From contig CACLAN010000002.1 in the NCBI GenBank assembly GCA_902604905.1, positions 68,020 to 132,019 of the forward strand: a stretch of DNA of 64,000 nt, read 5' to 3'. The notes beneath the pieces are model-generated. The model saw only the letters and a list, made by a program, of their open reading frames with translations. It did no database searches and was not told where the DNA came from. The position numbers and the translations under genes were made by a program. Below are positions 1-15,571 of this stretch, in pieces; position 1 is the stretch's first letter, and each line of letters opens with the position of its first letter. The stretch comes from an uncultured Alphaproteobacteria bacterium (lineage in GTDB: Bacteria > Pseudomonadota > Alphaproteobacteria > HIMB59 > GCA-002718135).

Positions 1-1
1 T

Positions 2-340
2 ACCGTTGGTAATGATCTCTTAAAAATGACACCAGTGGCAGCATTTATTGTTGTTATATCACATTCTATTGTTTTATTTTTATTTGCATCCCAGGGTATA
101 AGTGCTTTTTTACAATCTATAAATCTTCCCTCTATACCTTTGGTACCAGTATCAAGTTCCCAAGCTGTTGTTGGCGGCGTAATTGGAATTGGTCTTTTAA
201 AAGGAGGAAAAGAGGTTCAATGGTCAATTGCAGGAAGAATTTCTTTGGGTTGGATGACGCTACCTATAATTGCAGCTTTAATTTCTTTAATTGTTTTATT
301 TATTCTAGAAAATATTTTTAATTTAACGGTCTCTTTTTAA
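2..340 (+). CDS. Inorganic phosphate transporter, PiT family (3' part; gene starts before the window)
   Basis: Hydrophobic helices with PVSSSQAVVGGVIGIG and 'W..A.RI..GW..LP', typical of the PiT C-terminal PHO4 repeat; frame is open to the window edge. Confidence 0.8.
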   Translation, partial: TVGNDLLKMTPVAAFIVVISHSIVLFLFASQGISAFLQSINLPSIPLVPVSSSQAVVGGVIGIGLLKGGKEVQWSIAGRISLGWMTLPIIAALISLIVLFILENIFNLTVSF

Positions 341-861
341 TTAACTGCTCGATAAGAAAAAATAAAATCTTCCTGGATTTTAGATTCAATAGCCCCTTTT
401 CTTCTTGATCGCACTAGATCGATAGCTTCTTGTTTTTGATAATTAAATTCAACAAGTAAAATAGCAGCTATGGTGCCAGCCCTTCCTTTGCCTCCACGGC
501 AATGTAAAACTATATTTTTTCCATCTATCAATTCGTTCTTTAATAAAACTTTTGTTGTTTCCCATTTATATTTAAAATCTTTATCTGGTGCTCCCATGTC
601 ATAAATGGGTAAATGGTACCAATGTAATTTATGTTCATAAATATTTTTGACAAACAAAGTTTTATCACACAATTTTTCAAATTCGCTATCTTCAACAAAA
701 GAAGTAATAGAACTACAATTATTATTTTTAAATATTTCTAATTCGTTTGCTAAAATTGTTTCTTCAAATAAACCATTAGAATTAAGACCTGGGAAAGAAG
801 TTAATATAATTTTGCCTGCAAATGACTTAGATTCAATAAAATCATAATTGCTAAATTGCAT
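337..861 (-). CDS. Cys-dependent (PTP/dual-specificity, CDKN3-like) phosphatase
   Basis: HCRGGKGRAG (HCx5R) active-site loop and HLPIYDMGAP general-acid loop. Confidence 0.85.
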   Translation of the reverse strand: MQFSNYDFIESKSFAGKIILTSFPGLNSNGLFEETILANELEIFKNNNCSSITSFVEDSEFEKLCDKTLFVKNIYEHKLHWYHLPIYDMGAPDKDFKYKWETTKVLLKNELIDGKNIVLHCRGGKGRAGTIAAILLVEFNYQKQEAIDLVRSRRKGAIESKIQEDFIFSYRAVN

Positions 862-1431
862 TTACGCTTGTTTAGCTAAAAAAGACTGTCTTGCTTCTTC
901 TAAATAGGAACGAAAATGTTCAACATCGGGAGTTTTTTTATCTAGAATTTTTGCTAAATCATCAAATCTTCTAAGTTCTACTGCTTCATCCATAAAAGGT
1001 TTGCTTATAAACGCTTCTGCTTCTTCTTTTGAGAAAGGACCACCTTGAACTTTTAACGAAAGTTTCGATGCTTCTGATAGACTATCATAATAACCCTCTT
1101 CAACACTTGATAAATATCTTTTTGAATCTACATGTGCTCTGATTGGTAAAATAACATCCTCACCAAAATATTTTTTTAAAAAATCAGCACCTAAATTTTC
1201 ATGATGACCATCTTTCCCTTCATGAATGGGATCGCCGTCCTCATAGATAAGGTGGCCAATATCATGCAGTAATGCTGCAGCAATTGTTGGTCCGGGTAAT
1301 TTATGTTTTTCAGCAAGTTCAGCGCATTGGAGTGCGTGCTCAAGCTGAGTCACATCCTCATTACCATATTGAATATCTGCACCTTTTGTTTTCAAAAGAT
1401 CTAAGAGATAATCCACGATATTTTCTTGCAT
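862..1431 (-). CDS. phnZ: HD-domain di-iron phosphonate oxygenase, PhnZ/TmpB family
   Basis: YGNEDVTQLEHALQ, LLHDIGH, HENLGA, HVDSKRYL, SLKVQGGP and RRFDDLAK motifs; phosphonate gene context. Confidence 0.85.
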   Translation of the reverse strand: MQENIVDYLLDLLKTKGADIQYGNEDVTQLEHALQCAELAEKHKLPGPTIAAALLHDIGHLIYEDGDPIHEGKDGHHENLGADFLKKYFGEDVILPIRAHVDSKRYLSSVEEGYYDSLSEASKLSLKVQGGPFSKEEAEAFISKPFMDEAVELRRFDDLAKILDKKTPDVEHFRSYLEEARQSFLAKQA

Positions 1432-1525
1432 TCTAATTTATAATTAACTTATTAGAAATTAAATTCAATTCCAACTTTAATAAGATTGATCAAATTTATA
1501 ATAATATTTATTAAGTAAACATTTA

Positions 1526-2623
1526 ATGGATAAAAAATTATTAACCCCTGGTCCTCTTACGACATCGATGTCAACAAAAGAGGCTATGCTCCATGATTGG
1601 GGTTCAAGAGATACAAAATTTATTGATCTCAATGCATCAATTAGAGATTCCCTTGTTAAATTAATAGACGGTGAAGATAAATATCAATGTGTTCCAATGC
1701 AGGGAAGTGGAACTTTTGCTGTAGAGTCGATGGTGAGCTCTCTTACTCAAAAAGATTCTAAAATTCTGATTCTGATCAATGGTGCTTACGGACAAAGAAT
1801 GAAAAAAATGTGCACTTATTTAGGGAGAGATTTTATTGAATATGAAGTTGCTGAACATGAAGTACATGACATCAATAAAATTGAAGAGTTAATTGATAGC
1901 AACAACTTAACACACGTCTTTGCTGTATATTGTGAAACAACATCGGGTATTTTAAATCCTATTGAAGAGATTGCAAAATTAGTTGAAATGAAAAACTTAT
2001 CGTTATTCATCGATGCAATGAGTGCCTTTGGTGCATTACCCTTAAGTTCTAAAACAATTACTTTTGATGCTGTAGCCGCTTCATCAAACAAATGCTTAGA
2101 AGGTGTGCCAGGTGTTGGTTTCATTCTTGTTAAAAATGAAGTTATTCAAAATGCAAAAGGCAATAGTCACTCACTAAGTCTAGACTTATATGATCAATGG
2201 CAAGCAATGGAAAAAAATAAACAATGGCGATTTACACCTCCAACACATGTATTGGCTGCATTCAATCAAGCGATTGAGGAACATAAAGAACAAGGCGGTG
2301 TAGAGGGACGAGGCAAAAGATATAAAAAAAATTGTGAAATTATTTGTAATGGAATGAAAGAGTTGGGATTTGAGCAACTACTTCCTGATAATTTGCAAGC
2401 ACCAATTATTATTACGTTTAAACAACCTAATGATCCTAAATTTAACTTTGATAAATTTTATAATGCTCTTAGTGAAAAAGATTTTTTAATTTATCCAGGA
2501 AAACTTACAGTGGCAGAAACTTTTAGAATTGGGTGTATTGGTAATTTAGATGAACAAGACATGATGGATACAATAAAAGCTGTAAAAGAAGTCGTTACTG
2601 AATTGGGATTAACATTAAACTAA
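1526..2623 (+). CDS. phnW: 2-aminoethylphosphonate-pyruvate transaminase
   Basis: LLTPGPLTTS, DWGSRD, QGSGTFAVE, CETTSG, DAMSAFG, SSNKCLEG (PLP Lys), QWRFTPPTH, IYPGKLT. Confidence 0.95.
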   Translation: MDKKLLTPGPLTTSMSTKEAMLHDWGSRDTKFIDLNASIRDSLVKLIDGEDKYQCVPMQGSGTFAVESMVSSLTQKDSKILILINGAYGQRMKKMCTYLGRDFIEYEVAEHEVHDINKIEELIDSNNLTHVFAVYCETTSGILNPIEEIAKLVEMKNLSLFIDAMSAFGALPLSSKTITFDAVAASSNKCLEGVPGVGFILVKNEVIQNAKGNSHSLSLDLYDQWQAMEKNKQWRFTPPTHVLAAFNQAIEEHKEQGGVEGRGKRYKKNCEIICNGMKELGFEQLLPDNLQAPIIITFKQPNDPKFNFDKFYNALSEKDFLIYPGKLTVAETFRIGCIGNLDEQDMMDTIKAVKEVVTELGLTLN

Positions 2624-2630
2624 CAAAATA

Positions 2631-3263
2631 ATGACAATTAAAATTGAAATACCTTTAGTTAAAGCAACAAATGAAAATCTTAAAGGATATGGGTATTTAA
2701 TCGATAGTTTTGAAAATAGTGATATTGAAATTGTTACTTGGCCAAAACAAGGATGGCGCGACATAGAAGAGGGAACAGGAAATGAAGGTGGAACTACCGA
2801 AGGTTCTTTTGATACCTGGTGGCAAGGTGATGTGCTTTATGGACAAAATAATGCTGTCCAACATAAAAGTGATTATGAAGTAGATGGAAAATATATACTG
2901 GGTTATGCCAATAATCCTGATCAAGAATTACAAAAAGATAAATATTCAGATCCAACAAAAATATTTCTATGGCATGCAAATTATCATCCTGATGGAGGTC
3001 AGCTTTTCTTTCCTGAAGAAAATAAACCATTTATTTGTCCTTTAGCCTTACCGACAGACGACATTGAACCAGAACATTTTAAAGCATTTTATTGTGATGG
3101 ATCAAAAGGTTTGTATATTCATCCAAACATTTGGCATGAAGGGGTGTTTCCAGTTACAGAAAAACAATCGTTTCAAGGAAAACAAGGTAAAGTACATGCA
3201 AGAGTTAGCATCGACTTAAAAGAGGAATTTAATAAATATATTTATTTTAAAACTGCGATCTAA
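2631..3263 (+). CDS. Ureidoglycolate lyase (AllA)-like cupin protein, function unknown
   Basis: NYHPDGGQLFFP and GLYIHPNIWH metal-binding cupin motifs; starts 7 nt after phnW. Confidence 0.65.
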   Translation: MTIKIEIPLVKATNENLKGYGYLIDSFENSDIEIVTWPKQGWRDIEEGTGNEGGTTEGSFDTWWQGDVLYGQNNAVQHKSDYEVDGKYILGYANNPDQELQKDKYSDPTKIFLWHANYHPDGGQLFFPEENKPFICPLALPTDDIEPEHFKAFYCDGSKGLYIHPNIWHEGVFPVTEKQSFQGKQGKVHARVSIDLKEEFNKYIYFKTAI

Positions 3264-3283
3264 TTATAAATTTATATTTAATA

Positions 3284-4072
3284 ATGAAAATTATTCACCT
3301 TTCAGACCCCCATATTTATATAGATAAGATTCATGGCATAGATCCTGTCAGTAAATTTAAAAAAGCATTAAGTCATTTAAAAAATAATCATGGTGATGCG
3401 GATTTATTTGCCATCACTGGTGATATTACAGACTTAGGTGATAAAGATTCTTATCAGTTATTTATAAAAATAATTGATGAAGCAAATCTGCCAAAGAATT
3501 TAAATCCTCAATTAATTATAGGTAATCATGATAACAGAGATGAGTTTAAAATAAACTTTCCTAATATTGAGACCGATCCAAATGGATTTATTCAATACTT
3601 TAAGGATATAGATAATAAACGTTTAATTTTTATAGATACTAATCTGATTAATACTCACCAAGGACATTATTGTGAAGAGAGGCAAGAATGGTTAAATAAT
3701 ATTTTAAGTAAGACTAATATGGATACGTACATCTTTATGCATCATAATCCACTAGCATTAGTAAAAGAGGAAAGTGATGGAATAGGATTACAACAAAAAA
3801 AAGAGTTTCAACAAATTTTAACTAAAAATAATAAGATAATAAAACATATTTTTTTTGGTCATCAACACATTACAAGTTCTGGTTCTTATTGTGGTATTAC
3901 TTTTTCCTCCCCAAGAAGTACTTGGTCTCCTCTAATACCTAACTTTTCGAATGAATATCGTTTAGGGACAGCAAATACAGATACAAATTATAATGTTGCA
4001 ATAATTCGATCTGACGCTTTAATTATTCATACCGAGGATTTTTTAAAAACAGAAGTTAATTGGTTTAAATAA
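3284..4072 (+). CDS. Metallophosphoesterase, GpdQ/CpdA-like phosphodiesterase
   Basis: All five calcineurin-like motifs present: SDPH, TGDITD, GNHD, MHHNP, FGHQH. Confidence 0.85.
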   Translation: MKIIHLSDPHIYIDKIHGIDPVSKFKKALSHLKNNHGDADLFAITGDITDLGDKDSYQLFIKIIDEANLPKNLNPQLIIGNHDNRDEFKINFPNIETDPNGFIQYFKDIDNKRLIFIDTNLINTHQGHYCEERQEWLNNILSKTNMDTYIFMHHNPLALVKEESDGIGLQQKKEFQQILTKNNKIIKHIFFGHQHITSSGSYCGITFSSPRSTWSPLIPNFSNEYRLGTANTDTNYNVAIIRSDALIIHTEDFLKTEVNWFK

Positions 4073-4075
4073 AAA

Positions 4076-5182
4076 TTATTTTTTTTCGATTACAAATATT
4101 TCATTGTTAAAATAAAGACCTTTATTTTTAGCAACAATTTTTTGAACTACCTTTTCGTAATTTTTTGTTTTTTCTACTTTCATAACTTTATCATCATCCA
4201 TTTGATTGACATATATGGAGGCATTCCAAGCAGAAAAAATTAAGGATGTCGCTATACCTCCACTGATTTCTGTTGGTAGAGCTCTCAGTTTGCATTTAAT
4301 AATTCTTTTTTTTCCAAAAGATAAAGTGCTTAATAAATCTTTATCTAAATTTTTCTTAAGATAAGAAATGATACTATTTCCCAGAGAAGGAAATGGGTCT
4401 TCTTTTGGCCAAATTTTACGAATTATTTCATTAGCAGGATCTTTTCCTGAAGCATGAATAGTTAATAATTTCCCTTTTGATTTTAGCGCTCTAATCATTG
4501 GTTCAATGACATATTTTGATTTCTTTTCTGATGAAATTCTTGAACGATAAGGCTGTGAAGCAATAATAAGATCAAATTTATTATCTGATTTTTTTTTGGT
4601 AGGGATTAATTCATTAACATTAAATTCTTGATCTTCGCGGTAGATAACCATTACTGAAGGCTCTTTATAAGTATGATTACCTGACTTTTTATTAATTTCT
4701 ATATTCCATTTTTTTTCTAAAAATTCATTTTGTTTTCTTAATTGTTGAGCAAATTCAAGAGAAGTGTCACCTTTTAATTTAATAATATTCCAATTAATTT
4801 TTTTCTGTTTAACTTCATTTTTTGATTTTAGGTTTGCGGCTTCCGCGTAGTGTAGATTTGAAATGACAAAAACAGTATTCTTATGCTCAACAAACCTATC
4901 GGGTAATTTTTCTAAACCTAATCTTACATCTTCTATGCTTATTTCTTTTGTGCAAACTAATAGAGGTACGTTAGGCCTAGCTTCGTGGCACTGACGCATT
5001 ACATTCATAAGTAAAGAACCATCCCCCATACCAGCATCAAATATTTTTAAACCAGGTTTTTGAGGCTTAATTTTATTTACGTGAGGACGTATCGCATCGG
5101 CAATTTGATTTTTTTCATTTGTTGTAGTTACAAATAATAAATATTTTTGTCTGTTATCATAAAACCTGAAATTTTTTTTCAT
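4076..5182 (-). CDS. Conserved hypothetical protein with class I SAM-dependent methyltransferase-like fold
   Basis: IFDAGMGDG motif-I-like and FDLIIASQPY motif-IV-like segments. Confidence 0.55.
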   Translation of the reverse strand: MKKNFRFYDNRQKYLLFVTTTNEKNQIADAIRPHVNKIKPQKPGLKIFDAGMGDGSLLMNVMRQCHEARPNVPLLVCTKEISIEDVRLGLEKLPDRFVEHKNTVFVISNLHYAEAANLKSKNEVKQKKINWNIIKLKGDTSLEFAQQLRKQNEFLEKKWNIEINKKSGNHTYKEPSVMVIYREDQEFNVNELIPTKKKSDNKFDLIIASQPYRSRISSEKKSKYVIEPMIRALKSKGKLLTIHASGKDPANEIIRKIWPKEDPFPSLGNSIISYLKKNLDKDLLSTLSFGKKRIIKCKLRALPTEISGGIATSLIFSAWNASIYVNQMDDDKVMKVEKTKNYEKVVQKIVAKNKGLYFNNEIFVIEKK

Positions 5183-5184
5183 TA

Positions 5185-6297
5185 CTAATAAAGTCCCATT
5201 GATTTAGCAGAAGAGATGAAGGCTTCTTTATTGCCAATAAAGTTTTTACCTCGTTCCCCTAAAAACGCATCATCTACTATATTATTCCATTCTTGAACAG
5301 GAACTTTTATTTCATTTAAGTTAAGAGGAACCTCTAAAGAACGCATAAATTCACTCAGATGATTTGCGGCATTCTCTAGGTTATCGTTAAAAATTAATTT
5401 TAGTCTTTCTTCAGCTACACTATCAATTCCAACCATACTTTTAGTAATCATCGGTAAAGTAAATGAACAAGCAATACCATGCTGAATACCGTAATTAAGT
5501 GTCACAGGGTATGATAGATTGTGCGCAATAGCAGTTTTCGTATTGGAAAACGCTAAGCCAGCATGAACGCACGCCAATGCAATCTTTGAGCGTAATACAA
5601 CATTTCTTAAATCTTTAGTGAGAAGTGGTAAATTTTCTAATACTAATTTTGATGCTTGTATTGCATGAGAAGCAGAAATTGGGTTCGCATTAATATTCCA
5701 AATACTTTCCATCGAATGGGAGAGAGCATCTAAACCAGTTGAAATGGTCAAGCCTAAAGGCTTATCAACCATAATAGATGGATCAATAATTGCTTTTTCA
5801 GCATAAAGAGATTTCTGAGCCAAAGATAATTTGTTGTTTTTTTCTTTATCCCAAATTGTGGCCCAACACGTAAGCTCACTTGATGTTCCTGAAGTTGTAG
5901 GTATTGCAATAATCTTAATTGGATTTTCGACTCTTGGACTTTTCTTATTGCGAACGAAATCTGTTAGGTATTCTTGTTTATCTTTAAATGCAGCAATTGC
6001 TTTAGCTGTGTCTGTAACAGAGCCACCACCTATAGCTAAAATATAATCTACCGATTCATTGATTAAAGAAAATTTTTTTTGTAGCTCTAAAATATCCTTA
6101 TAATCTGGATTAGGCTGAACATCCGTCATAATGGATAAGGGTGGATTTGAAGAAGATTTTAATTCATCGCTATATTTTTTAAAAATTTCTTCTGGATGAG
6201 TGATAATGATGTAGTTCTTATTTTTAAGAGCATCATGTACTTCTTTAAATCTATTTTCTCCAAAGATTATTTCAACTGGGTTAAAATAGTTCCACAT
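5185..6297 (-). CDS. Iron-containing alcohol dehydrogenase, phosphonate-associated (phosphonoacetaldehyde reductase/HEP dehydrogenase-like)
   Basis: AIGGGS, PTTSGTSSE, DALSHSMES, AHNLSY and HGIAC Fe-ADH motifs; TCWATIWD and AFSNTKTA segments recalled from the phosphonate-linked subfamily. Confidence 0.8.
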   Translation of the reverse strand: MWNYFNPVEIIFGENRFKEVHDALKNKNYIIITHPEEIFKKYSDELKSSSNPPLSIMTDVQPNPDYKDILELQKKFSLINESVDYILAIGGGSVTDTAKAIAAFKDKQEYLTDFVRNKKSPRVENPIKIIAIPTTSGTSSELTCWATIWDKEKNNKLSLAQKSLYAEKAIIDPSIMVDKPLGLTISTGLDALSHSMESIWNINANPISASHAIQASKLVLENLPLLTKDLRNVVLRSKIALACVHAGLAFSNTKTAIAHNLSYPVTLNYGIQHGIACSFTLPMITKSMVGIDSVAEERLKLIFNDNLENAANHLSEFMRSLEVPLNLNEIKVPVQEWNNIVDDAFLGERGKNFIGNKEAFISSAKSMGLY

Positions 6298-6301
6298 TAT
6301 A

Positions 6302-7381
6302 TTAAATTGATTTAGCAGCTTTTGTTAAAATAGACATTTTTTCAATTGCTTGTTCTCTTGTAAAAAAACCTAATCCACAATCAGGAGCTGCAATTAAACG
6401 ATCTTCATCAATATGCTCTAAAGAATCTTTCATACGAACTCTAACTTCTTCTACTGTCTCCATTCTGCTTTTAGCAATGTCAATAAATCCAAAAATAACT
6501 TTTGTTTTTGTAAATTTTTCTAAAAGATTTAAGTCATTATGTCTGTGGGAGTCTTCTAAGGATACTTCGTCAATTGTAGAGTCATCTACTAAAGTAGCAA
6601 TTCTATCATAAGCATCTAATTCTGCTTTCTTGTATCCATGAGAATCTAAGGAATTTGGATAACCACAACAGATATGACAAACTCGTTGAACTTCTTTTGG
6701 AATACCATGCATCATTCTTTCCAAGTTTTCCATACCATAAGCATTGGCCTCATCGGGTTTTCTTGCAAAAACTGGTTCATCAATTTGGATATATTGACAA
6801 CCAGCATCAGCTAGAGCTTTTACCTCTTTGTTTAGAGCCAAAGCTAAATCAAAACCAAGTTTTTTCATGTCATCATAGTAATTGTTGGCAATTGAATCTG
6901 TAATTGTCATTGGTCCAGGTAGCGTAATTTTAACTGGGTTTTTTGTAAATTGTTGTGCACTCTTCCAGTCTAGATGCATACGTATTTCTTTACTTGAAAT
7001 TGGAGCTACTATCGTTGGAAGATCAGCTTCAAAGGCTCCTTGCCGTACAGATTTATGAGTTACCTCTTTAAAACTTACACCATTTAAAAAACGACATTGA
7101 TATAAGACATAACTTTCACGTCTTACTTCTCCATCAGTTGGAACATCAATTCCCGCATTTACCTGATCAATAATAACTTCTTTAATTGCTTCTAAAAATA
7201 ATTTTTCTGCTTCTTCACCTGCTGACTCTAATGCCTTTTCATAAGCACCTGGAGACCAATTAGATAAAAGTCCTTTTGAAGCTTTTCTCTCTTCTTCTGA
7301 TTTTGTCCCTAAAAACCAATCTTGAATGGGTGTTTGTTTCGGTTTTGGATATGCACCTATAGTAGTAGTTGTAAGAGGCAT
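6302..7381 (-). CDS. Core (single-barrel) cobalamin-independent methionine synthase-like Zn enzyme
   Basis: TTTIGAYPKP, PTDGEVRRE, KITLPGPMT, IQIDEP, HICCG and APDCGLG Zn ligands; lacks the N-terminal MetE folate-binding barrel. Confidence 0.8.
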   Translation of the reverse strand: MPLTTTTIGAYPKPKQTPIQDWFLGTKSEEERKASKGLLSNWSPGAYEKALESAGEEAEKLFLEAIKEVIIDQVNAGIDVPTDGEVRRESYVLYQCRFLNGVSFKEVTHKSVRQGAFEADLPTIVAPISSKEIRMHLDWKSAQQFTKNPVKITLPGPMTITDSIANNYYDDMKKLGFDLALALNKEVKALADAGCQYIQIDEPVFARKPDEANAYGMENLERMMHGIPKEVQRVCHICCGYPNSLDSHGYKKAELDAYDRIATLVDDSTIDEVSLEDSHRHNDLNLLEKFTKTKVIFGFIDIAKSRMETVEEVRVRMKDSLEHIDEDRLIAAPDCGLGFFTREQAIEKMSILTKAAKSI

Positions 7382-7411
7382 GACTTATTCTCCCAAATAT
7401 CTTAAAATAAA

Positions 7412-7436
7412 ACAGCGGCTTTTATAAAGCCGCTGT
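7412..7436 (-). terminator. Intrinsic terminator or stabilising hairpin after the SBP gene
   Basis: ACAGCGGCTTT-tat-AAAGCCGCTGT, perfect 11-bp stem, followed by TTTATTTT on the minus strand. Confidence 0.75.
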
Positions 7437-7463
7437 AATAAAAAGTTAACAATAAAGTAATCT

Positions 7464-8717
7464 CTATAAAAGATCCTCTATTTCTTCCATCATCTCCTCT
7501 TGGAGATCAGCCATATTGTCTGCACTACCTGTAGCAATTTCTTCAGTGTAATCATAGATTACCTGAGTTATTGCTAGACCGTTTTCACCAGGATATGCAA
7601 ACCAATCAGCCAATAAAGGTAATTGATTTACTGCAGTTAGCTTGTTTGGATTTTTAGTATAAAAATCACCTAACAAATCATTGGCTGCTTTATTTGGTGG
7701 AACATATCCAGTAGTTTCAGCAACTAAAGCTGCACCTATACCAGAAGTGATAAACTTTAAGAAAGTCCATGCAGCATCTACTCTAGCTGGATCATCAGAT
7801 GTAGAAACCAACATCGCAGCATTTCCACCCGCTGGAAGTCTCGCTGGGGTTCCTCCATTTACACCTGGCATTCCTGGAAATGGTGCTGTTTTAAGTTCAA
7901 AATCTGCTTTGGCTGCGTTCACTGAACCTAAGCTTGATGTTGACCAGAAAAACATACCAATTGTGCCTGCATTAAATGCAGCTTGACCGTCAGCAATTGA
8001 ATAGTTTGGCATATTACAACCACTCATTATGTCATGCATTTGTTGTAAAGTTGCTAGACCAGCATCTCCACCCATATTAACAGCACCATCTTTTACCATT
8101 GGAACATTTTGGGTATGCATTAATGCTTGGTGAAACCAGTTACCTGTAATATTCCAACCAAAATATAAAGTTCCTTTACCTGCTGCTTCCAATTTATTAC
8201 AAGCTGCGATAACTTCGTCCCAGTTAGTTGGGATGTTATCTATACCTGCTTCAGCTAATAGATCCATGTTATAGTATCCAACTGGTGTTGATACAGAAAA
8301 TGGTAACCCATATACGTCACCACCAAAGGTGGATAGACTTAACATAGCAGAGTGATAACCATCTTTTTCAAAGTCAGCTTCTCCTGCAATAAAAGGCTCT
8401 AATGATTTTGCAATCCCTTTATCAACAAGTGGTGCTTGTCTGTTAAGACCTTGCATTGTTACATCTGGTAAATTACCTGAAGTAGACTCTCTGAAGATTG
8501 TTGCAGTTGCATCTTCATAGTTTTCATAAGTTGCCCTAAATTTAACTTGAATATCTGGATGTGCTTTTTCAAACTCTGGCATAATAGCTTGAAACGTAAC
8601 GTCAAATAATCCAGAGTAAGGATAAGCTACTTCTATTTCAATAGACTTAGCTGAATTAACAGAACCATAAAAACCAAAAGCTAGTACGGCTGCCAATCCT
8701 GTAATTAATTTTTTCAT
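7464..8717 (-). CDS. ABC transporter substrate-binding protein, CUT1/UgpB-like
   Basis: Signal peptide; GLPFSVSTPVGYYNMDLL, PTNWDEV, AAWTFLKF and TGYVP family-1 SBP motifs. Confidence 0.85.
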   Translation of the reverse strand: MKKLITGLAAVLAFGFYGSVNSAKSIEIEVAYPYSGLFDVTFQAIMPEFEKAHPDIQVKFRATYENYEDATATIFRESTSGNLPDVTMQGLNRQAPLVDKGIAKSLEPFIAGEADFEKDGYHSAMLSLSTFGGDVYGLPFSVSTPVGYYNMDLLAEAGIDNIPTNWDEVIAACNKLEAAGKGTLYFGWNITGNWFHQALMHTQNVPMVKDGAVNMGGDAGLATLQQMHDIMSGCNMPNYSIADGQAAFNAGTIGMFFWSTSSLGSVNAAKADFELKTAPFPGMPGVNGGTPARLPAGGNAAMLVSTSDDPARVDAAWTFLKFITSGIGAALVAETTGYVPPNKAANDLLGDFYTKNPNKLTAVNQLPLLADWFAYPGENGLAITQVIYDYTEEIATGSADNMADLQEEMMEEIEDLL

Positions 8718-8751
8718 TTAATCCTCCCGATTGAATATAATAATATTAATC

Positions 8752-8801
8752 TAACATGTAGCTTGAAAAAAGGTTACAATTTTATTACGAAAATATAACT
8801 A
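8752..8801 (-). promoter_or_regulatory. Pho-box-like tandem 11-bp repeats and -10 element upstream of the SBP gene
   Basis: Minus strand reads TAGTTAT-ATTT-TCGTAAT-AAAA-TTGTAAC, then 10 nt, then GCTACAT; resembles PhoB consensus CTGTCAT-N4-CTGTCAT. Confidence 0.55.
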
Positions 8802-8856
8802 AAAAATAAGCTTATTTTTCCACAGGAATACAAAAATTAGAGAAAAACTAGTTATT

Positions 8857-10299
8857 TTACCAAGGTAGTGAAAAGGTTTTTACATTAGTAAAACTTTTCA
8901 TTGCTTCAATAACACCCTCTTTGTAACCAAGACCTGAATCTTTAATTCCTCCGAAAGGAGACATTTCAATTCTGTAGCCTGGAACCTCCCAAATATTTAC
9001 CGTACCAACATTTAAACCTTGAATATATTTTTTTGCTCGCATGAAGTTGTTTGTACATACTCCAGATGATAATCCGAATGCGGTTGAATTAGATATTTTC
9101 ATTACAGCTTCATCGTCATTAGGTACTCGAATAATTGGGATAACTGGACCAAATGTTTCTTCTAAAACTAATTCACTTTTAGGATCAACATGATCTACAA
9201 CTATTGGAGGTAACAAAGCACCTTTTCTTCCAGGGTGATATAAAATTTTAGCGCCATCTTCTTCAGCCATAGAAACTCTTTTATCAAAAAGTTCTGCTGC
9301 TTCAGCATTAACAACAGTACCTAAGTCTGTTTCCAAATTCATAGGATCGCCAAATTTAATTTTTTTAGCACGCTCAAGAGCCATTTCGACAAATTGATCT
9401 GCAATAGATTCTTGCACTAATATCCTTTTAACAGCTGTACAACGTTGGCCAGAGTTTTTCGTTGCTCCAGTAACAGCTAGCTCAACAGCTTTTTTAAGAT
9501 CATCATCATCTAAGTCATTTAAAACAATTAATGGATCATTACCACCAAGCTCGAGAACTGTTCTTTTGTATCCAGCTTGTTCAGCAATTAGTTTTCCTAC
9601 ACCTACACTGCCTGTAAAAGTAATGAGATCAATATTTGGATTTTTGATCATTTCAGATCCAATATCTTGTGGCCATCCAGTTACAACTGAAAACATTTCT
9701 GGTGGCAAACCTGCTTCATATAAAACATCAGCGAGTACCATTGCTGTTAAAGGTGTTAATTCTGTCTGCTTACATACTGTACAATTATTAGTAGCAATTG
9801 AAGGCGCAATTTTATGCGCTACCATATTCAAAGGATGATTAAATGGAGTGATTGCTGAGATTGCCGTTAAAGGTTCTCTTATGGTAAATATTTTTCTGGC
9901 TTTTCCATGTGGAGTTAAATCACAAGAAAATATTTCTCCATCATCAAGAATACAAAGTTGAGCCGTTAATGAAAATACATCGAAAGCTCTTCCTACTTCG
10001 TATAGAGAATCTTGTTTTGAGATACCAAGTTCTAAAGTAATAATATCAGAAATTTCTTCTTTTCTTTTAACAAGTACTTCTGCAGCAGTTTGAAGAATTT
10101 TTTGTCTCTCATATCTTGTAAGTTTAGGTTGGTAATTTGCAGCAATATCTAAAGCCTTTCTTGCATGCTCTGCAGTACCTGCTGGAACCGTTCCGATTAC
10201 TTCACCTGTAAAAGGGTACTCAACATTTATTGTTTTATCTGAAGTAACTTTTTCTCCAGCTATACGCATTGCTTCATTAATCATTTTTTTGTGCATCAT
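8857..10299 (-). CDS. phnY: Phosphonoacetaldehyde dehydrogenase
   Basis: ALDH motifs [34 protein letters not shown]; CDLTPHGK and WEVPGYRIE PhnY signatures; overlaps phnA. Confidence 0.93.
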
Positions 10300-11537
10300 A
10301 GGGCTCCGTTAATTGCATAATAAAATGCATCATAGTTATATAATTGTCTGCTAGTATCTATATTTTGTAATTTTAAATTTGATATGAATGGCACTTCTCT
10401 TTCATGAAGTCCACCGTGTGAACGTAAAGGTTCATTTAATCCAGAAAGATTGTGTTTATCTTCAGATGAACCAATGGTCATAAATTCTGAAGACATACAT
10501 ATTATGTCTCCCATTCTATCAGGGGGTAAGTTATAAGTAGAGCATCCTTCGTCTTTTGTTAAAACAACTTCTATATCTTTTATTTCTTTGATAGCATTTA
10601 CAACTGAATCTACCTTACTTTTGTCTTCTAAATAAATTGTTGCAAAAGAACCAAGTGAACCATGATGCACGACATATGGATCTGTAATTGGTAGAATAAC
10701 TTTAGCCATGTTTGGTTTAAATTTATTATCTAAATAATCTTGTAAAAATATTGCATTAGGTGAACCGTCTTCTTTTGATTTTGGTTTCATACCGTGATCT
10801 GCTGTAATGATTATAGAAACATTCTCCTTATTTAAAAGACCAATATATTTATCAAACATTGCATAAAATTTATTTGCTGTTTCATTTCCTGGTGCATATT
10901 TATGTTGAATATAATCCGTAGTCGATAAATACATGATATTTGGTTTGAACTCTTCAAGAAGCTTTACACCTGCAGCCATTACAAATTCAGAAAGTCCTTC
11001 AGAGTATACTTCTGGCACTGGCATTCCCAACCAATCGTTTACATTATCTATACCATTGAGATCTTTTGTTGCTTGATCAGATTTTTCGGCAGAAAAACAA
11101 ATAGCTCTCTCATCATCAAAACTTAATCCGTTTCCTAAAAGTGTTCTCAGCTTATCTTTTGCAGTAACAAGAGCAATTTTAGAACCAGAATTGTAAAATT
11201 TTTCAAAAATAGTTGGTGCTCGCATATATTTTGGGTCATTCATCATTACTTCTTCACCAGTCTCGGGTGTATAAAAAAAGTTTCCGCATATACCGTGAAC
11301 AGAACTTGGCTGCCCAGTTACAATGGAAATATTATTAGGATTTGTAAAACTTGGAATAGCGCTGTGAACAAGTAGATTTTCACCACTTGCAATTAGTTTA
11401 TCAAGATTTGGTGTAAGATTTGATTTTGATGCTTCGTCGAGATACTCTTTTTGACTACCATCAAGACATATAACAATAGCAGTTTTTGAGAAAGAGCTTG
11501 GATATTCTCTTTTATTAATTTCTAAATTATCGGACAC
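10296..11537 (-). CDS. phnA: Phosphonoacetate hydrolase
   Basis: [13 protein letters not shown] (catalytic Thr), [32 protein letters not shown]; GTG start. Confidence 0.95.
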
Positions 11538-11613
11538 GACTTCAACTAATATATCATTAAAAATAAGAATTTATAGTTATCTGCTAGTTAAACTCAATCA
11601 TAATTTGAATATT

Positions 11614-11657
11614 TGTTAATAAAATTGAAATAAAACTGAAATAATTAGATTTATAAT
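11614..11657 (+). promoter_or_regulatory. Pho-box-like tandem 11-bp repeats and TATAAT upstream of the ABC ATPase/permease operon
   Basis: TGTTAAT-AAAA-TTGAAAT-AAAA-CTGAAAT, 9 nt, then TATAAT (11652-11657). Confidence 0.5.
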
Positions 11658-11714
11658 ATTCTCAAATTTAATAAAATTTTGTAGATTAGATATAATTATA
11701 AGAGGGGAGATTAG

Positions 11715-12854
11715 GTGGGCACAATATCACTTAAAAATATTTCAAAGTCATTTGGATCTACGCAAGTATTAAACAATTTAAATGTTGATATACAAAATGG
11801 CGAATTTTTAACATTAGTTGGTCCATCTGGTTGTGGTAAATCTACGTTACTTCGAATCATTGCAGGATTAGAACAGCAAACTTCAGGCGATGTATTAATT
11901 GATAATAAGAATGTAAATAAAATTAGAGCCAGCGAGCGAGATCTTGCAATGGTATTTCAATCATACGCTTTATATCCACATTTAACGGTACGAAGAAATT
12001 TAGAAACACCTCTAAGACTGAGAGATTATAATGCTTTTGAACGCCTTCCTTTAATAGGGAATTTTTCTCCAAACAAAAAAAGTAAAACTGAGTCTATCAA
12101 TAAATTAGTTAATAAAACATCTGAAACACTTCAGATTTCTGAACTACTGGATAGAAAACCAGGACAATTATCAGGAGGTCAAAGACAAAGAGTAGCTCTT
12201 GGTCGCGCAATGGTAAGAGAACCTGTTGCATTCTTAATGGATGAACCGCTGTCAAATTTAGATGCCGCTCTAAGAGTGCATATGCGATCCGAATTATCGG
12301 AACTTCACAATTCACTTAAAACAACATTTGTTTATGTAACGCATGATCAAGCAGAAGCATTGACAATGTCTTCTCGTATGGCGGTAATGATTGATGGAAA
12401 TTTATTACAACTGGATACACCTCAAGAAGTATATGATAATCCTTCATCATTAAGTGTTGCTCAATTTGTTGGTAGTCCTAAAATAAATATTTTTAATGGA
12501 TCTTCAGATTCTAGTGGAACTGTTAATTTTTTAAATGTTAACCTGAAAAGAAAAAGTTCTGAAAATAATTCAGATTTACACATTGGAATTCGACCAGAAC
12601 ATTTAGAAATTACTAATGATAAAAATGAAAACACATTTAGTGGAACTGTTGCTTACAGAGAAAATTTAGGATCAGATATATACTTCCATGTTAATATAGA
12701 AGACAACTCAAAAAAAATAATTGTAAGGGGCTTACCTCAATTTACACATCAAATTACAAATGGTTCAAGTGTGAATATCAAGAGAGATTCAAATAAAGCA
12801 TTGTTATTTAATCAAAAAGGGATGAGGATTCATTTTAATAATGCAATGGTATAA
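11715..12854 (+). CDS. ABC transporter ATP-binding protein, CUT1 (MalK/UgpC-like)
   Basis: GPSGCGKST, VFQSYALYPH, LSGGQRQR, DEPLSNLD, VTHDQ; C-terminal TOBE-like domain. Confidence 0.92.
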   Translation: MGTISLKNISKSFGSTQVLNNLNVDIQNGEFLTLVGPSGCGKSTLLRIIAGLEQQTSGDVLIDNKNVNKIRASERDLAMVFQSYALYPHLTVRRNLETPLRLRDYNAFERLPLIGNFSPNKKSKTESINKLVNKTSETLQISELLDRKPGQLSGGQRQRVALGRAMVREPVAFLMDEPLSNLDAALRVHMRSELSELHNSLKTTFVYVTHDQAEALTMSSRMAVMIDGNLLQLDTPQEVYDNPSSLSVAQFVGSPKINIFNGSSDSSGTVNFLNVNLKRKSSENNSDLHIGIRPEHLEITNDKNENTFSGTVAYRENLGSDIYFHVNIEDNSKKIIVRGLPQFTHQITNGSSVNIKRDSNKALLFNQKGMRIHFNNAMV

Positions 12855-12869
12855 GGATAACATTTACTA

Positions 12870-13826
12870 ATGCATAATTCAAAGGCTCATCTATGGTTTA
12901 TTGCCCCTGCAATAATACTCATGATAATTATTTTAATCTTTCCTCTTTTTCTTGCAGGTGGAATTTCCTTTACTGATTATAATTTAGGCAACAAAACATT
13001 TGAATGGATTGGGTTAGAGAACTATGACAAAATGTTTAACCGAAAAACTTATGTGAAGATGATTTGGGCAACAGCCACGTATGTAATTGTTGTGGTGCCT
13101 ATTTCAGTTATACTTGGTTTATGTGCAGCGATGCTCTTAAATTCTCTACGATTTGGTGCTGACATATATAAAACTATTTTCTTTCTTCCAGTTATGGCGA
13201 CGCTTCTGGCAATGGCTATTGCTTGGGAATTCACTCTTCACCCAACTCTTGGGATAGTAAATAATTTTTTAGCTAATGGTTGTGGTGGTGCAAGAGAATT
13301 TATTTTTGGTTTTCATTGGTTGCCATGGGTAGACTCTGAACAAAGTTGGTATGCAGTGGCGTGTGCAAATAACATGGACTTTCCTTATTGGTTAAAACAA
13401 AAAAATACTGCAATTTGGACTGTTTGTTTTATTGGAATATGGCAAGCCTTTGGTTTCAATATGGTTTTATATTTAGCTGGATTAACAGGTATACCAAGAG
13501 AACTATATCAAGCTGCAGAAATGGATGGAGCTAAATCAACATGGGAACAATTTAAACTTGTAACATGGCCAATGCTTGGTCCAACAACTTTATTTGTTGT
13601 AACCATAACGACTATTAGAACCTTTCAAGTTTTTGATACAATTGAAATACTCACAAAAGGTGGTCCATCTAAAACAACCTACGTTATGATGTATGCAATT
13701 TTTGAAAAAGCTATTCAACAAAATTTAACAAGTATTGGTGCAGCTATCACAGTTGTCTTCATTGGATTTATATTGATATTAACTTTCTTCCAAAGATATA
13801 TCATTGAGAAAAGGGTTCATTATTAA
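12870..13826 (+). CDS. ABC transporter permease, CUT1 (UgpA/MalF-like)
   Basis: TM helices; WIGLENY; EAA-like loop LYQAAEMDGA; TKGGP. Confidence 0.9.
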   Translation: MHNSKAHLWFIAPAIILMIIILIFPLFLAGGISFTDYNLGNKTFEWIGLENYDKMFNRKTYVKMIWATATYVIVVVPISVILGLCAAMLLNSLRFGADIYKTIFFLPVMATLLAMAIAWEFTLHPTLGIVNNFLANGCGGAREFIFGFHWLPWVDSEQSWYAVACANNMDFPYWLKQKNTAIWTVCFIGIWQAFGFNMVLYLAGLTGIPRELYQAAEMDGAKSTWEQFKLVTWPMLGPTTLFVVTITTIRTFQVFDTIEILTKGGPSKTTYVMMYAIFEKAIQQNLTSIGAAITVVFIGFILILTFFQRYIIEKRVHY

Positions 13827-14719
13827 TGGAAGCTAAACAGTATATTGGTGAAGGTTGGAAACATGCAATATTGATTATTGGTGCAATTGTTGTGTTGTTG
13901 CCTTTTTATATGATGGTTTCAATGTCATTAAAATCTCAACAAGAAATTCAATCTATTTCTGGAGGTCTCATTGGTGCACAAGAAACTCAAACATTTCCCG
14001 TATGTGTAAAAACTGGATACTCAGAAGAAGAATGCACAATGAAACCATATAAATACAACTATTGGTTTGCTTTCGAAAAGGCTCCCATTCCAAGATACTT
14101 GATGAATGGTGTTATTGTAACTTTATCAATTTTTATCATTCAGGTTCTTGTAGCCTTACCGTGTGCCTACGCTCTGGCCAAACTTAGATTTTATGGACGA
14201 GAGTTTGTTTTCTCCATGGTGTTATTTTGTTTACTCATCCCAGTGCATGGAATTGCACTTCCACTTTACGTCATGCTTGCTCAGGCAGGTTTGGTCGATA
14301 CCTATTCCGCCTTAATACTGCCCTGGACAATATCGGTGTTTGGAATTTTTCTAATGCGGCAATTCTTTATGACAGTCCCAGATGAATTAATTGACGCCGC
14401 CAGGATGGATGGAATGGGAGAGTATGCTATAGTCTGGAAAGTAATGCTTCCAACTGCGATACCAGCATTACTTGCCTTTGCTATTTTCTCAGTAGTTGCA
14501 CACTGGAATGATTATTTCTGGCCTCGAATGGTAATTACTGGAAATAGAGATCTCTTTACACCACCTCTTGGTATCAGAGAATTTAGAGGTGGAATTGATA
14601 GTGATGAGTTTGGTCCAATGATGGCTTCAATTGTTACAGTTACAGTACCTCTCATTGTTGCTTTTATAATCGCACAAAAAAGATTTATTGAAGGAATTAC
14701 TTTAACAGGAATGAAGTAA
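13826..14719 (+). CDS. ABC transporter permease, CUT1 (UgpE/MalG-like)
   Basis: CAYALAK, IFLMRQFF, ELIDAARMDG, WNDYFWP, QKRFIEG. Confidence 0.9.
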   Translation: MEAKQYIGEGWKHAILIIGAIVVLLPFYMMVSMSLKSQQEIQSISGGLIGAQETQTFPVCVKTGYSEEECTMKPYKYNYWFAFEKAPIPRYLMNGVIVTLSIFIIQVLVALPCAYALAKLRFYGREFVFSMVLFCLLIPVHGIALPLYVMLAQAGLVDTYSALILPWTISVFGIFLMRQFFMTVPDELIDAARMDGMGEYAIVWKVMLPTAIPALLAFAIFSVVAHWNDYFWPRMVITGNRDLFTPPLGIREFRGGIDSDEFGPMMASIVTVTVPLIVAFIIAQKRFIEGITLTGMK

Positions 14720-14728
14720 GATAGTCTT

Positions 14729-15571
14729 TTGTCTATCAATTTTATTTTTCTTTTAATTATTTTATCTGCACTGTGTCACGCTATTTGGAGCGCCATAATT
14801 AAATCAAGTAAGAACCCTTTATCGTTAATGGGTATAACGTCTGTCTTAGAGGTTACTATTTTTTTACCTTTAACATTTACTGTTCCATTTCCAACTTTAG
14901 AGGTTTGGTATTTTTTAATTGCAACCGTTATCATTCATGTTTTTTATAGATTGAATGTAATTTATTCTTATAGGTACGGTGACTTGTCCTACATTTATCC
15001 AATCTCTAGGGGAAGTTCATGTCTATTTGTTGCTATCATTAGTATTTTGTTTTTAAGTTCAGATATTAGTGTTGCTGGCTTTATTGGAATATTAATTGTT
15101 TGTATTGGTTTATTTTTAATATCGTATTCGAAAAATTTATCTTTTAACTTTAGAGGTTTTGCTCTTGCGATTTCAACTGCTATTTTAATTACTGCATATA
15201 CTTTAGTTGACGGAGTCGGAGTTAGGCTTTCGGAAAATGGTTTTTCATATATTTATTGGCTCTTCGCACTTAATGGAATACCTTTACTAATTATTGGTTT
15301 GATCTCGAAAAATGGTTTACGAAAAAGAGAAACATACACATTTAGATCAGGGATTGCTGCTGGTGTATTTGCAACAAGTAGTTACGCAATTGTTGTTTGG
15401 AGTATGCAATTTATAGAAATAGCGTATGTCTCTAGTATCAGAGAAATCAGTATTGTTTTTGCCGCTATTATTGGAATGGTTTTTTTATTTGAAAGAAATG
15501 CTAAATCGAGAATAATCCCATCTATTTTAATAGTAAGTGGTATTTCGGTGGTTTATTTTCAAATTCTTTAG
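14729..15571 (+). CDS. EamA/DMT transporter resembling the phosphonate-utilisation-associated DMT family
   Basis: About 10 TM helices; HAIW, YRYGDLSYIYPISRG, YTLVDG, REISIVF; TTG start. Confidence 0.75.
   Translation: MSINFIFLLIILSALCHAIWSAIIKSSKNPLSLMGITSVLEVTIFLPLTFTVPFPTLEVWYFLIATVIIHVFYRLNVIYSYRYGDLSYIYPISRGSSCLFVAIISILFLSSDISVAGFIGILIVCIGLFLISYSKNLSFNFRGFALAISTAILITAYTLVDGVGVRLSENGFSYIYWLFALNGIPLLIIGLISKNGLRKRETYTFRSGIAAGVFATSSYAIVVWSMQFIEIAYVSSIREISIVFAAIIGMVFLFERNAKSRIIPSILIVSGISVVYFQIL

Follow-up and report, generated by a model that had tools for sequence, protein, structure and literature searches.

Variable gene modules around phnY and phnA in marine HIMB59 Alphaproteobacteria: a probable multi-substrate phosphorus-scavenging island

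A large share of the organic phosphorus dissolved in seawater consists of phosphonates, and the bacterial lineage considered here is abundant in those gyres that are poorest in phosphorus. This work concerns a phosphonate gene island of an uncultured alphaproteobacterium of the order HIMB59, located at positions 337-15571 of a 64,000-nucleotide stretch of contig CACLAN010000002.1 (hereafter the window), which is part of a 1.0-Mb assembly (59% complete; GC about 31-35%). Among the closest described systems are the hydrolytic PhnW-PhnY-PhnA clusters for 2-aminoethylphosphonate (AEP). Oxidative cleavage of the carbon-phosphorus (C-P) bond is described in the text of PMC10590968 for two enzyme pairs, TmpA/TmpB acting on trimethyl-AEP and PhnY*/PhnZ acting on AEP. 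According to the main text of Piazza et al. 2026 (PMC13576164), iron-containing alcohol dehydrogenases (Fe-ADHs) of the PhpC type, and PbfG, oxidise 2-hydroxyethylphosphonate (HEP) to phosphonoacetaldehyde in degradative clusters, and the published phpC clusters of this kind are mostly without phnW; a catabolic role of phpC had already been suspected in the text of Lockwood et al. 2022. Within the HIMB59 order, the text of Molina-Pardines et al. 2023 (PMC10734472) describes flexible phosphate (fGIp) and C-P-lyase (fGIphn) islands, and for AEGEAN-169 that of PMC11366302 reports the hydrolytic 2-AEP pathway for >85% of one clade and, for 30% of a second, a 'partial' phnY/phnA pathway; transcripts were present for each.

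Here, we argue that the island is probably one version of a modular, multi-substrate toolkit for phosphorus scavenging and not one linear new pathway. At its hub, PhnY and PhnA would convert phosphonoacetaldehyde to acetate and phosphate. Two feeders would lead to this hub: PhnW, with an AllA-like cupin alongside, would supply it from AEP, and a PhpC-type Fe-ADH would supply it from HEP, a reaction shown for homologues and presumed here. A further module combines an ATP-binding cassette (ABC) importer of the Ugp/CUT1 type with a MesD-like homocysteine methyltransferase of the core MetE fold (MetE-like). A metallophosphoesterase may unmask phosphonate esters or diesters, and the Ugp-type importers might serve such ester forms. 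A PhnZ/TmpB-like HD-domain oxygenase, together with a PTP-type Cys-phosphatase, could cleave a 1-hydroxy-phosphonate directly, with this substrate either made by a hydroxylase encoded elsewhere (a TmpA-like gene is present in the genome) or imported ready-made. The remaining modules are a histamine-N-methyltransferase-like S-adenosylmethionine (SAM) methyltransferase and a DMT permease.

That the island is hypervariable and modular, with phnY and phnA as its hub, came from a comparison of 40 loci of about 19 kb around phnA. They were hand-picked from the 133 phnA-positive genomes of the order (20 from the genus of the window, 7 from other genera of its family and 13 from a second family), and modules were scored by tblastn with the window proteins at a minimum of 45% identity and 50% coverage. 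A PhnA-family gene was detected in 133 of 187 genomes of the order and passes the cut-off in 127; one family contributes 100 positives among 115 genomes and the other 32 among 71. The island sits at one chromosomal site, with a PhoU_div/PHO4 phosphate-transporter pair on one side and FYDLN-MFS-MsrQ-MsrP genes on the other, and its contents vary. Both phnY and phnA are present in 40/40 loci and form the constant core. The phnW gene is accompanied by the cupin gene in 24 loci and never stands without it, and a cupin gene without phnW was seen once, in a case cut off by the edge of the locus taken. The genes for the MetE-like protein, the binding protein and a permease occur together in 19 loci and in no locus singly, and the Fe-ADH gene occurs in 23, with the MetE-like gene in 19 and without it in 4. 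Every locus with the PTP gene (15/15) also has the PhnZ-like gene, which is found without PTP in 3. The metallophosphoesterase and the methyltransferase-fold genes are present in 22/40 and 20/40 loci, respectively. Within this sample, the couplings of phnW with the cupin, of the MetE-like gene with importer and Fe-ADH, and of PTP with PhnZ are strict.

Two versions illustrate how these modules are combined. A simple one (loci L127, L128, L133, L140 and L022) consists of the blocks PTP-PhnZ, PhnW-cupin-(phosphoesterase), methyltransferase-PhnY-PhnA and DMT. A version from the second family, found in nine loci, has Fe-ADH, MetE-like, binding-protein, PhnY, PhnA and ABC genes without phnW, cupin, esterase or PhnZ. 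The arrangement of the window itself recurs at 92-100% protein identity in several further genomes, and because of this recurrence and of its coverage by contigs from seawater metatranscriptomes (see below) we regard it as more than chance. An earlier reading, made from the sequence alone (the sequence-only reading), had listed twelve gene types in this region, and our gene calls, made from a listing of open reading frames (ORFs) and from Pfam and NCBIfam profile searches of the window proteins, recovered all of them with the spacing it described (Table 1). It had named a lack of co-occurrence with phn genes in other genomes as a first sign against it; in the 40 neighbourhoods of the order the accessory genes do recur with phn genes. 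Outside the order, the cupin, MetE-like and methyltransferase-fold families lie mostly apart from phnW, phnY and phnA.

The three enzymes of the hydrolytic pathway pass their curated cut-offs, PhnW for all of three models (NF010006, Table 1; TIGR03301, 467.2 bits against 360.8; TIGR02326, 459.6 bits against 400.8). PhnY is the sole above-cut-off copy in the genome, and its gene overlaps phnA by 4 bases at the start of a tight minus-strand string that continues with the binding-protein, MetE-like, Fe-ADH and methyltransferase-fold genes. The window therefore shares with described PhnW-PhnY-PhnA clusters the same three enzymes, each above its equivalog cut-off, but it has neither a dedicated AEP transporter of the PhnS/T/U type nor a regulator, and at least seven extra genes are interleaved. 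Sister islands have PhnS2/U2 transporters, or FAD oxidoreductases in the stead of PhnW: a TIGR03329 'aminophosphonate oxidoreductase' is present in 6 island loci, and a TIGR03364 FAD oxidoreductase with PhnS2-type AEP transporter genes in 4. The idea of alternative phosphorus-acquisition islands at one genomic position in a streamlined lineage is shared with fGIp and fGIphn as described in the text of PMC10734472, but those carry pst and C-P-lyase genes and the phnY/phnA island is a different locus; the words 'phnW' and 'phnZ' have 0 occurrences in that text.

The Fe-ADH is likely an HEP dehydrogenase that yields phosphonoacetaldehyde, as judged from its profile match and its gene order. It scores 361.3 bits with TIGR03405, for which the cut-off is 423.7 bits, and the next model is far lower at 160 bits. 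In 23/40 loci its gene lies within the phnA-phnY gene string, which is the synteny criterion of Lockwood et al. 2022. Because the PhpC class was shown in 2026 to oxidise HEP (PMC13576164, main text), this accessory gene is probably already explained, and the same biochemistry supports the earlier suggestion that HEP is used. An Fe-ADH next to phnY-phnA, TIGR03405-like in the island, is common to the clusters of that paper and to the island, and phnW is missing from the second-family version as from most published clusters. The island differs from them in the lower score of the window Fe-ADH (361 bits) and in that a MesD-like methyltransferase and a Ugp-type ABC importer stand beside the Fe-ADH in 19/23 loci, a combination not mentioned in the main text of PMC13576164, the supplementary tables of which may list this clade.

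For the PhnZ-like protein, the predicted reaction is an oxidative break of the C-P bond in a 1-hydroxy-phosphonate. Besides its match to TIGR03276 (Table 1), it scores 157 bits with the TmpB model and 154.6 bits with the PhnZ1 model (cut-off 300 each), and among solved structures it matches TmpB (6NPA, 113.8 bits) and PhnZ (4MLM, 106.4 bits). The metal motifs H, HD, H, H and D (lEH, lHD, HE, aHV and fDD) align with those of 6NPA and 4MLM, and we take these residues to be the six iron ligands of PhnZ/TmpB. A Tyr/Glu pair, considered as a marker of PhnZ versus TmpB specificity, is uninformative, as both references and the query share the residues. The PTP gene lies directly downstream and has the HCX5R(S/T) catalytic loop. 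An adjacent Fe/2-oxoglutarate (2OG) hydroxylase corresponding to PhnY* or TmpA was looked for, and no TauD or PhyH gene was found in 337-15571. The one TauD-family gene of the genome lies on contig C8 in a sugar-gene context and scores 312 bits with the TmpA model (cut-off 400), and five PhyH-family genes lie on other contigs. A TmpA-like gene of 312-319 bits is present in 5/5 genomes of the genus searched. In the second family, 4/5 genomes searched have one of 334-339 bits that adjoins a divergent HD-like ORF, and the fifth (G177) has one of 275 bits. This second-family pair is located off the phnA island (G133:C5:56856-58225; also G168, G027 and G151), and its HD-like ORF has 204 residues and 36.8 bits to Phn-HD. 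The island thus shares with the TmpA/TmpB and PhnY*/PhnZ systems an HD di-iron oxygenase that keeps the metal-ligand motifs, but it is without a TauD/PhyH hydroxylase, and its HD protein is below the cut-offs and is paired with a Cys-phosphatase instead.

The MetE-like protein is predicted from alignment to be a zinc- and homocysteine-dependent methyltransferase. Its closest solved relative is 3RPD (161.5 bits), called MesD by Price et al. 2021 (PMC7857596). With residue roles taken from the text of that paper, the alignment to 3RPD keeps the zinc ligands HxC (HICCGY), E (SLE) and C (DCGL) and the homocysteine contacts Glu, Asp and Tyr (DGE, DEP and GY), Ser22 lying beyond the aligned part. 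The protein shares with the folate-independent methionine synthase MesD/MesX, as described there, the core MetE fold, the zinc ligands and the homocysteine contacts, but its gene belongs to a phosphonate island, where that of an ABC binding protein is its neighbour. MesX (DUF1852, PF08908) was found in 0/5 genomes of the genus, and as the model also matched 0/14 control genomes this result is uninformative. Two other island versions have recruited unrelated homocysteine methyltransferases. Locus L132 has a PF02574 homocysteine S-methyltransferase where the MetE-like gene would be, together with a second CUT1 ABC importer, a metallophosphoesterase, a methyltransferase-fold gene, an Fe-ADH and phnY/phnA, and locus L105 has two PF02574-like genes, one of them inside a PhnZ-like-PTP-methyltransferase string. 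The homocysteine methyltransferases of the island versions thus have two different folds.

Relatives of the MetE-like protein outside the order point to quaternary amines. The family is present in 60/401 genomes of an even class sample (matches at E ≤1e-40), and homologues of 47-55% identity occur in 14 genomes outside the order, from 11 of which we studied 12 loci. A TmpB-like HD gene lies directly upstream of the MetE-like gene in L147, L151 and L155 and 4.7 kb off in L150, and TmpA-like dioxygenases are present in 5/12 loci (L147, L148, L150, L151 and L155). Among these loci, the cut-offs are exceeded by two TmpA proteins, with 578 and 528 bits, and by one TmpB protein, with 313 bits. The row TmpA-like, TmpB-like HD, MetE-like is seen in L147, L151 and L155 (around positions 8400-10100). 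Further neighbours are DAO-GCV_T (dimethylglycine-dehydrogenase-like), choline sulfatase, GMC oxidoreductase, BKACE and family-5 ABC genes. A paralogue of 49% identity is found in the window's genome and in genome G100; the former (C29:3703-4746, L156) adjoins a sulfatase and an alanine dehydrogenase, a context that suggests that the clade acts on choline-sulfate- or betaine-type compounds.

From these observations, it is possible, and we propose it tentatively, that the methyl-transfer genes of the island handle N-methylated onium compounds (trimethyl-AEP or glycine betaine released by TmpB) and pass their methyl groups to homocysteine. We take this onium link as the best available reading because three unrelated homocysteine methyltransferase genes have been recruited and because relatives of the MetE-like gene lie downstream of TmpA/TmpB. 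We nevertheless hold it to be the less probable outcome, because the module also occurs without a PhnZ-like gene: in the second family the MetE-like gene is coupled to the importer without a PhnZ-like gene in the island, which fits betaine from TmpB poorly as the methyl donor. Two further points count against it. No FAD oxidase that would finish the demethylation of trimethyl-AEP was found in the window, and a TmpB-like neighbour is seen in only 2/17 outside loci of the cupin and 4/12 of the MetE-like gene. A broader proposal, which we regard as rather doubtful, is that homocysteine-dependent methyl transfer by MesD-like or PF02574 enzymes would be an integral, undescribed step of marine phosphonate catabolism, with trimethyl-AEP, TmpB-derived glycine betaine or an imported phosphonate methyl ester as donor, and that the cupin would join the PhnW and TmpA/TmpB pathways as a third component, so far undescribed.

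A different organization was put forward by the sequence-only reading, in which all the extra genes form a single front end that imports and unmasks aminoethylphosphonates in esterified or modified form, such as glyceryl-AEP from phosphonolipids, HEP bound to glycans, and hydroxy- or N-methyl-AEP, and leads all of them to phosphonoacetaldehyde. We consider it unlikely that the island works in this way. The window does have a Ugp-type ABC importer and a GpdQ/SpdA-like phosphoesterase that would suit such a role. The metallophosphoesterase scores 173 bits with the SpdA model (cut-off 400), and its best solved relatives are Rv0805 and the entries 2ZO9, 2DXL and 3D03, titled 'Phosphohydrolase' (55.7 bits), which we take to be GpdQ; it is a candidate phosphodiester or phosphonate-monoester hydrolase. 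The importer is Ugp/CUT1-like and not an orthologue of UgpBAEC, since the scores are below the equivalog cut-offs (UgpC 390/432, UgpA 101/335, UgpE 129/297 and UgpB 66.9/411 bits), and the binding protein has weak matches to solved sugar-binding and UgpB proteins (~57-68 bits) that give no ligand clue. Compared with UgpBAEC and GpdQ/UgpQ, the window shares the ATPase, two permeases, a family-1 binding protein and a calcineurin-like phosphoesterase, but these genes are embedded among those of C-P-cleaving enzymes. Also in favour of a front end, locus L144 has a second Ugp-like ABC importer beside a GDPD-type glycerophosphodiesterase and a metallophosphoesterase. A GlpA-like FAD protein adjoins phnY/phnA in two loci (L107:12880-14031 and L108:1769-2908); it scores 369 bits, below the cut-off, with the model of anaerobic glycerol-3-phosphate dehydrogenase A, and a glycerol-phosphonate analogue is its possible substrate. 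HEP esters are reported, in the discussion of PMC13576164, to be major components of marine dissolved organic matter.

Against a single front end, the modules vary independently among the 40 loci, and the module of ABC, MetE-like and Fe-ADH genes occurs in the second family with neither esterase nor phnW. A single front end would also leave the need for a homocysteine methyltransferase unexplained. PhnZ-type enzymes cut the C-P bond directly and yield glycine or betaine plus phosphate, not phosphonoacetaldehyde. The claim that every extra gene feeds phosphonoacetaldehyde is therefore not supported, nor is that of one coherent front end, the extras being independently gained and lost modules. 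The use of ester and N-methyl substrates remains plausible from the Ugp-type importer with the metallophosphoesterase, the GDPD gene of L144 and the homocysteine methyltransferases of two folds. The further claim that known funnelling enzymes are not recognisable has lapsed for the Fe-ADH, which is likely of the known PhpC type; no PbfA-like, FAD (DAO), TauD or PhyH gene was found by Pfam within 337-15571. Sister islands have the TIGR03329 and TIGR03364 FAD oxidoreductases, and contig C8 has the TmpA-like gene.

We have also weighed whether the MetE-like gene with its importer, the methyltransferase-fold gene, the cupin and PTP are hitch-hiking cargo of the island that serves one-carbon, methionine or quaternary-amine metabolism and has no chemical relation to phosphonates, for example as a folate-independent methionine synthase with an imported donor (glycine betaine, choline derivatives or S-methylmethionine). 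The methyltransferase-fold protein bears on this question. It has no Pfam or NCBIfam match, but by its AlphaFold model (pLDDT 91.2) it has a class I SAM methyltransferase fold resembling histamine N-methyltransferase: the top Foldseek match is the human enzyme 1JQD (E 1.5e-10), and of the 236 matches at E ≤0.001 all listed ones are SAM methyltransferases. The glycine-rich motif I is present (Table 1). The protein database has 4535 relatives, all unnamed or 'hypothetical' (779 representatives at 50% identity). A genome-wide scan gave at least 592 loci, of which we examined the best 80; phn genes were found in 10 of these, all in the clade of the window. In 48 distant loci of Gamma-, Beta- and Alphaproteobacteria, Acidimicrobiia and others (41-48% identity), a core-MetE-like gene is present in 21, within 250 bases in 4. 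Other contexts are formate-tetrahydrofolate ligase with GNAT, TauD with Rieske and dimethylglycine-dehydrogenase-like genes, and aromatic ring-cleavage clusters. The family is therefore widespread and mostly without a phosphonate link. Some of its members (P0123, P0145 and P0157) have an N-terminal extension of ~100 residues, and in Steroidobacteraceae-type genomes the gene directly follows core-MetE-like paralogues in aromatic-catabolism clusters with IclR, a TonB receptor and catechol dioxygenase.

These contexts are consistent with hitch-hiking, as are the MesD-like character of the MetE-like protein with its conserved methionine/homocysteine site, the sulfatase beside the C29 paralogue, the diverse contexts of the cupin outside the order, and the position of the second-family island, which adjoins thioredoxin, metK and ahcY genes. 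On the other hand, the MetE-like gene lies within the phnA-phnY-...-Fe-ADH string in conserved order in two families (19/19 cases), unrelated homocysteine methyltransferases were recruited in two other island versions, the cupin gene follows phnW in every one of 24 loci, and relatives of the MetE-like gene and of the cupin occur in true TmpA/TmpB clusters. On balance, we find it improbable that these genes are mere cargo.

The cupin gene begins 8 bases 3' of phnW. Its sequence match to AllA is confined to residues of about 113-181 (119-182 with PF04115, 117-181 with NCBIfam), and the AllA equivalog models of NCBIfam reach at most 33 bits, where 230 would be required, without a full-length match. 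In its AlphaFold model (pLDDT 88.4), the fold resembles those of AllA ureidoglycolate lyases, the top Foldseek matches being the AllA structures 2BDR and 1XSQ (E 5e-9 to 2e-8). An HxD...H...RxS-like pattern had suggested an Fe/2OG oxygenase in disguise; as a claim about the fold this was rejected, AllA lyases coming first in Foldseek and no 2OG oxygenase being among the matches listed at ranks 1-50. The family is present in 20/401 genomes of the class sample, of which 18 are outside the genus of the window, one with a fragment only. PhnW was found beside the cupin in 0/17 loci examined outside the genus. In two of the 17 (L159 and L165), a TmpB equivalog of 366 and 353 bits, respectively, lies directly upstream of the cupin, as part of a TmpA-TmpB-cupin operon in an unrelated alphaproteobacterium (L159:9149-11523, minus strand) and as a TmpB-cupin pair in another (L165:992-2238). 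The other contexts are diverse, with aminotransferases nearby in three. Relatives of both the MetE-like protein and the cupin of the island occur in true TmpA/TmpB operons, and it may be that the trimethyl-AEP pathway has in the AllA-like cupin an accessory not yet described.

A stronger version of this idea would make the cupin the missing partner of the PhnZ-like enzyme, either as a new non-2OG 1-hydroxylase that replaces PhnY*/TmpA or as a processor of the TmpB/PhnZ product. The cupin is present in 17/18 loci of the order that have the PhnZ-like gene, the two outside loci just described place it with TmpB, and the alignment has invariant residues H119, D121, H164, H169, H189 and R191. We nevertheless judge this partnership quite improbable. 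The fold is that of AllA lyases, with no 2OG oxygenase among the listed Foldseek matches at ranks 1-50; the gene is coupled to phnW rather than to the PhnZ-like gene; 8 loci, some of them incomplete, have the cupin without the PhnZ-like gene; and L159 already has its own TmpA. Still less likely is that the homocysteine methyltransferases would demethylate phosphonate methyl esters (of HEP or AEP) by zinc-thiolate attack to free phosphonate and methionine. Chemical analogies are Ada, which uses a zinc thiolate to demethylate methyl phosphotriesters, and the demethylation of methyl organophosphates with glutathione. Phosphonate methyl esters resemble phosphodiesters and would suit a Ugp-type importer, to which, with the Fe-ADH, the MetE-like gene is strictly coupled even without an esterase, but the closest relatives of the MetE-like gene are in quaternary-amine clusters and we know of no natural seawater pool of such esters.

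Returning to the modular scavenging island as the preferred reading, signals from RNA libraries bear on its use at sea. Of the words sampled from 4076-11537, 33-49% are present in fourteen metatranscriptome runs. Contigs from four runs of four seawater studies cover 28-30 of the 30 bins of window positions 1-16200, and there are individual contigs across each of the junctions phnA/phnY, phnY/binding-protein, binding-protein/MetE-like and Fe-ADH/methyltransferase. In 3/4 runs, the binding-protein gene exceeds the genes beside it 10-100 times in summed contig depth, which is a weak hint, as contig depth cannot rank genes. Several points weigh against the preferred reading. RNA-library contigs may include DNA and do not prove single transcripts. 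A strong, terminator-like hairpin just after the binding-protein gene separates it from the MetE-like gene (Table 1); one RNA-library contig (6848-7508) spans it. The module statistics come from chosen, related genomes and hence are not independent samples. The scores of the Fe-ADH, the PhnZ-like protein, the DMT permease and the metallophosphoesterase are below their curated cut-offs, as are those of the Ugp-like proteins, and their functions are predicted from sequence; for the DMT permease, the model concerned is TIGR03340, a 'phosphonate-utilisation-associated' membrane protein family (Table 1). Finally, a homologue of the methyltransferase-fold protein (64-71% identity) is present in 22 Pelagibacteraceae-labelled or related loci that are free of phn genes over 10 kb around it.

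The words 'phosphodiesterase', 'methyltransferase' and 'cupin' are absent from the text of Lockwood et al. 2022, and in the texts of the Pbf papers (PMC10590968 and PMC8154272) there is no mention of a cupin, ureidoglycolate, a methionine synthase, a methyltransferase or a phosphodiesterase. Our literature searches found nothing that links the cupin or homocysteine methyltransferases to phn clusters; Tables S1 and S2 of PMC13576164 and the supplements of Lockwood et al. may already list clusters of this clade.

The features of the island are collected in Table 1. On the left it is bordered by the PHO4 gene, which is conserved and seen flanking in 18/40 of the relatives' loci. The right flank (window 15780-20772) has genes for an FYDLN_acid protein, an MFS transporter, MsrQ/MsrP and a family-5 binding protein, and is conserved across the order. 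In the divergent intergenic region between phnA and the ABC genes, three direct repeats (11614-11642) resemble a Pho box in their layout and may point to Pho control. Their 18-base core occurs once only (exact) in the genome, and an exact or near copy of the repeats is found in the same intergenic region of the relatives L130, L137-L139 and L141-L143. A similar triple repeat, TTGTCAT AAAT CTTTCAT ATTT CTTTAAT, lies upstream of a PstS-like gene in L112; no PstS-like gene for a Pho-box comparison was found in the 59%-complete assembly of the window.

Table 1. Features of the phosphonate island and its left border, with positions in the window and the matches on which the names are based
Feature	Position	Strand	Evidence
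3' end of PHO4-family phosphate transporter gene	26..340	+	PF01384 40.5 bits; full ORF C2:67307-68359
PTP/DSP-type Cys-phosphatase	337..861	-	PTP-SAK 49.5 bits (cut-off 27); motif HCRGGKGRAGT
PhnZ/TmpB-like HD-domain di-iron oxygenase (predicted)	862..1431	-	TIGR03276 201.4 bits, cut-off 214.6
PhnW, 2-aminoethylphosphonate:pyruvate transaminase	1526..2623	+	NF010006 512.1 bits, cut-off 296
AllA-like cupin	2631..3263	+	PF04115 40 bits
Calcineurin-like metallophosphoesterase (SpdA/GpdQ/Rv0805-like)	3284..4072	+	Metallophos 60.7 bits
Class-I SAM-methyltransferase-fold protein, 368 residues	4076..5182	-	AlphaFold model and Foldseek; motif FDAGMGDG
Iron-containing alcohol dehydrogenase (Fe-ADH), likely PhpC-type	5185..6297	-	Fe-ADH 122.7 and ADH_Fe_C 112.6 bits
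MesD-like core MetE	6302..7381	-	PF01717 123.9 bits
Terminator-like hairpin	7412..7436	-	11 pairs, 6 G-C, then T run
Family-1 (CUT1/UgpB-type) periplasmic solute-binding protein	7464..8717	-	SBP_bac_1 124 bits
PhnY, phosphonoacetaldehyde dehydrogenase	8857..10299	-	TIGR03250 796.9 bits, cut-off 635.65
PhnA, phosphonoacetate hydrolase	10296..11537	-	TIGR02335 466.6 bits, cut-off 407.55
Three 7-base direct repeats, 11-base period	11614..11642	.	TGTTAAT-AAAA-TTGAAAT-AAAA-CTGAAAT
UgpC/MalK-type ABC ATPase	11715..12854	+	UgpC model 390 bits, cut-off 432
UgpA-like ABC permease	12870..13826	+	BPD_transp_1; UgpA model 101 bits
UgpE-like ABC permease	13826..14719	+	BPD_transp_1; UgpE model 129 bits
DMT/EamA permease	14729..15571	+	EamA 62.5 bits; TIGR03340 143.4 bits, cut-off 288.15

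We would like to point out that part of this island is textbook and part was explained in 2026, and the outcome is a set of well-linked targets rather than a demonstrated new pathway. Three targets have strong genomic linkage: the cupin coupled to phnW, the homocysteine methyltransferase coupled to the importer, and the Cys-phosphatase coupled to PhnZ. With these targets it can be tested directly whether the phosphonate derivatives consumed in the ocean are N-methylated, esterified or hydroxylated ones. If methyl groups are indeed passed to homocysteine, phosphorus scavenging would be coupled to methionine regeneration in streamlined bacteria that are starved for methyl groups and sulfur. Read as a modular island, the AEP pathway of this lineage would be a swap-in/swap-out toolkit that also covers HEP, which would explain the 'partial phnY/phnA pathway' of field genomes.

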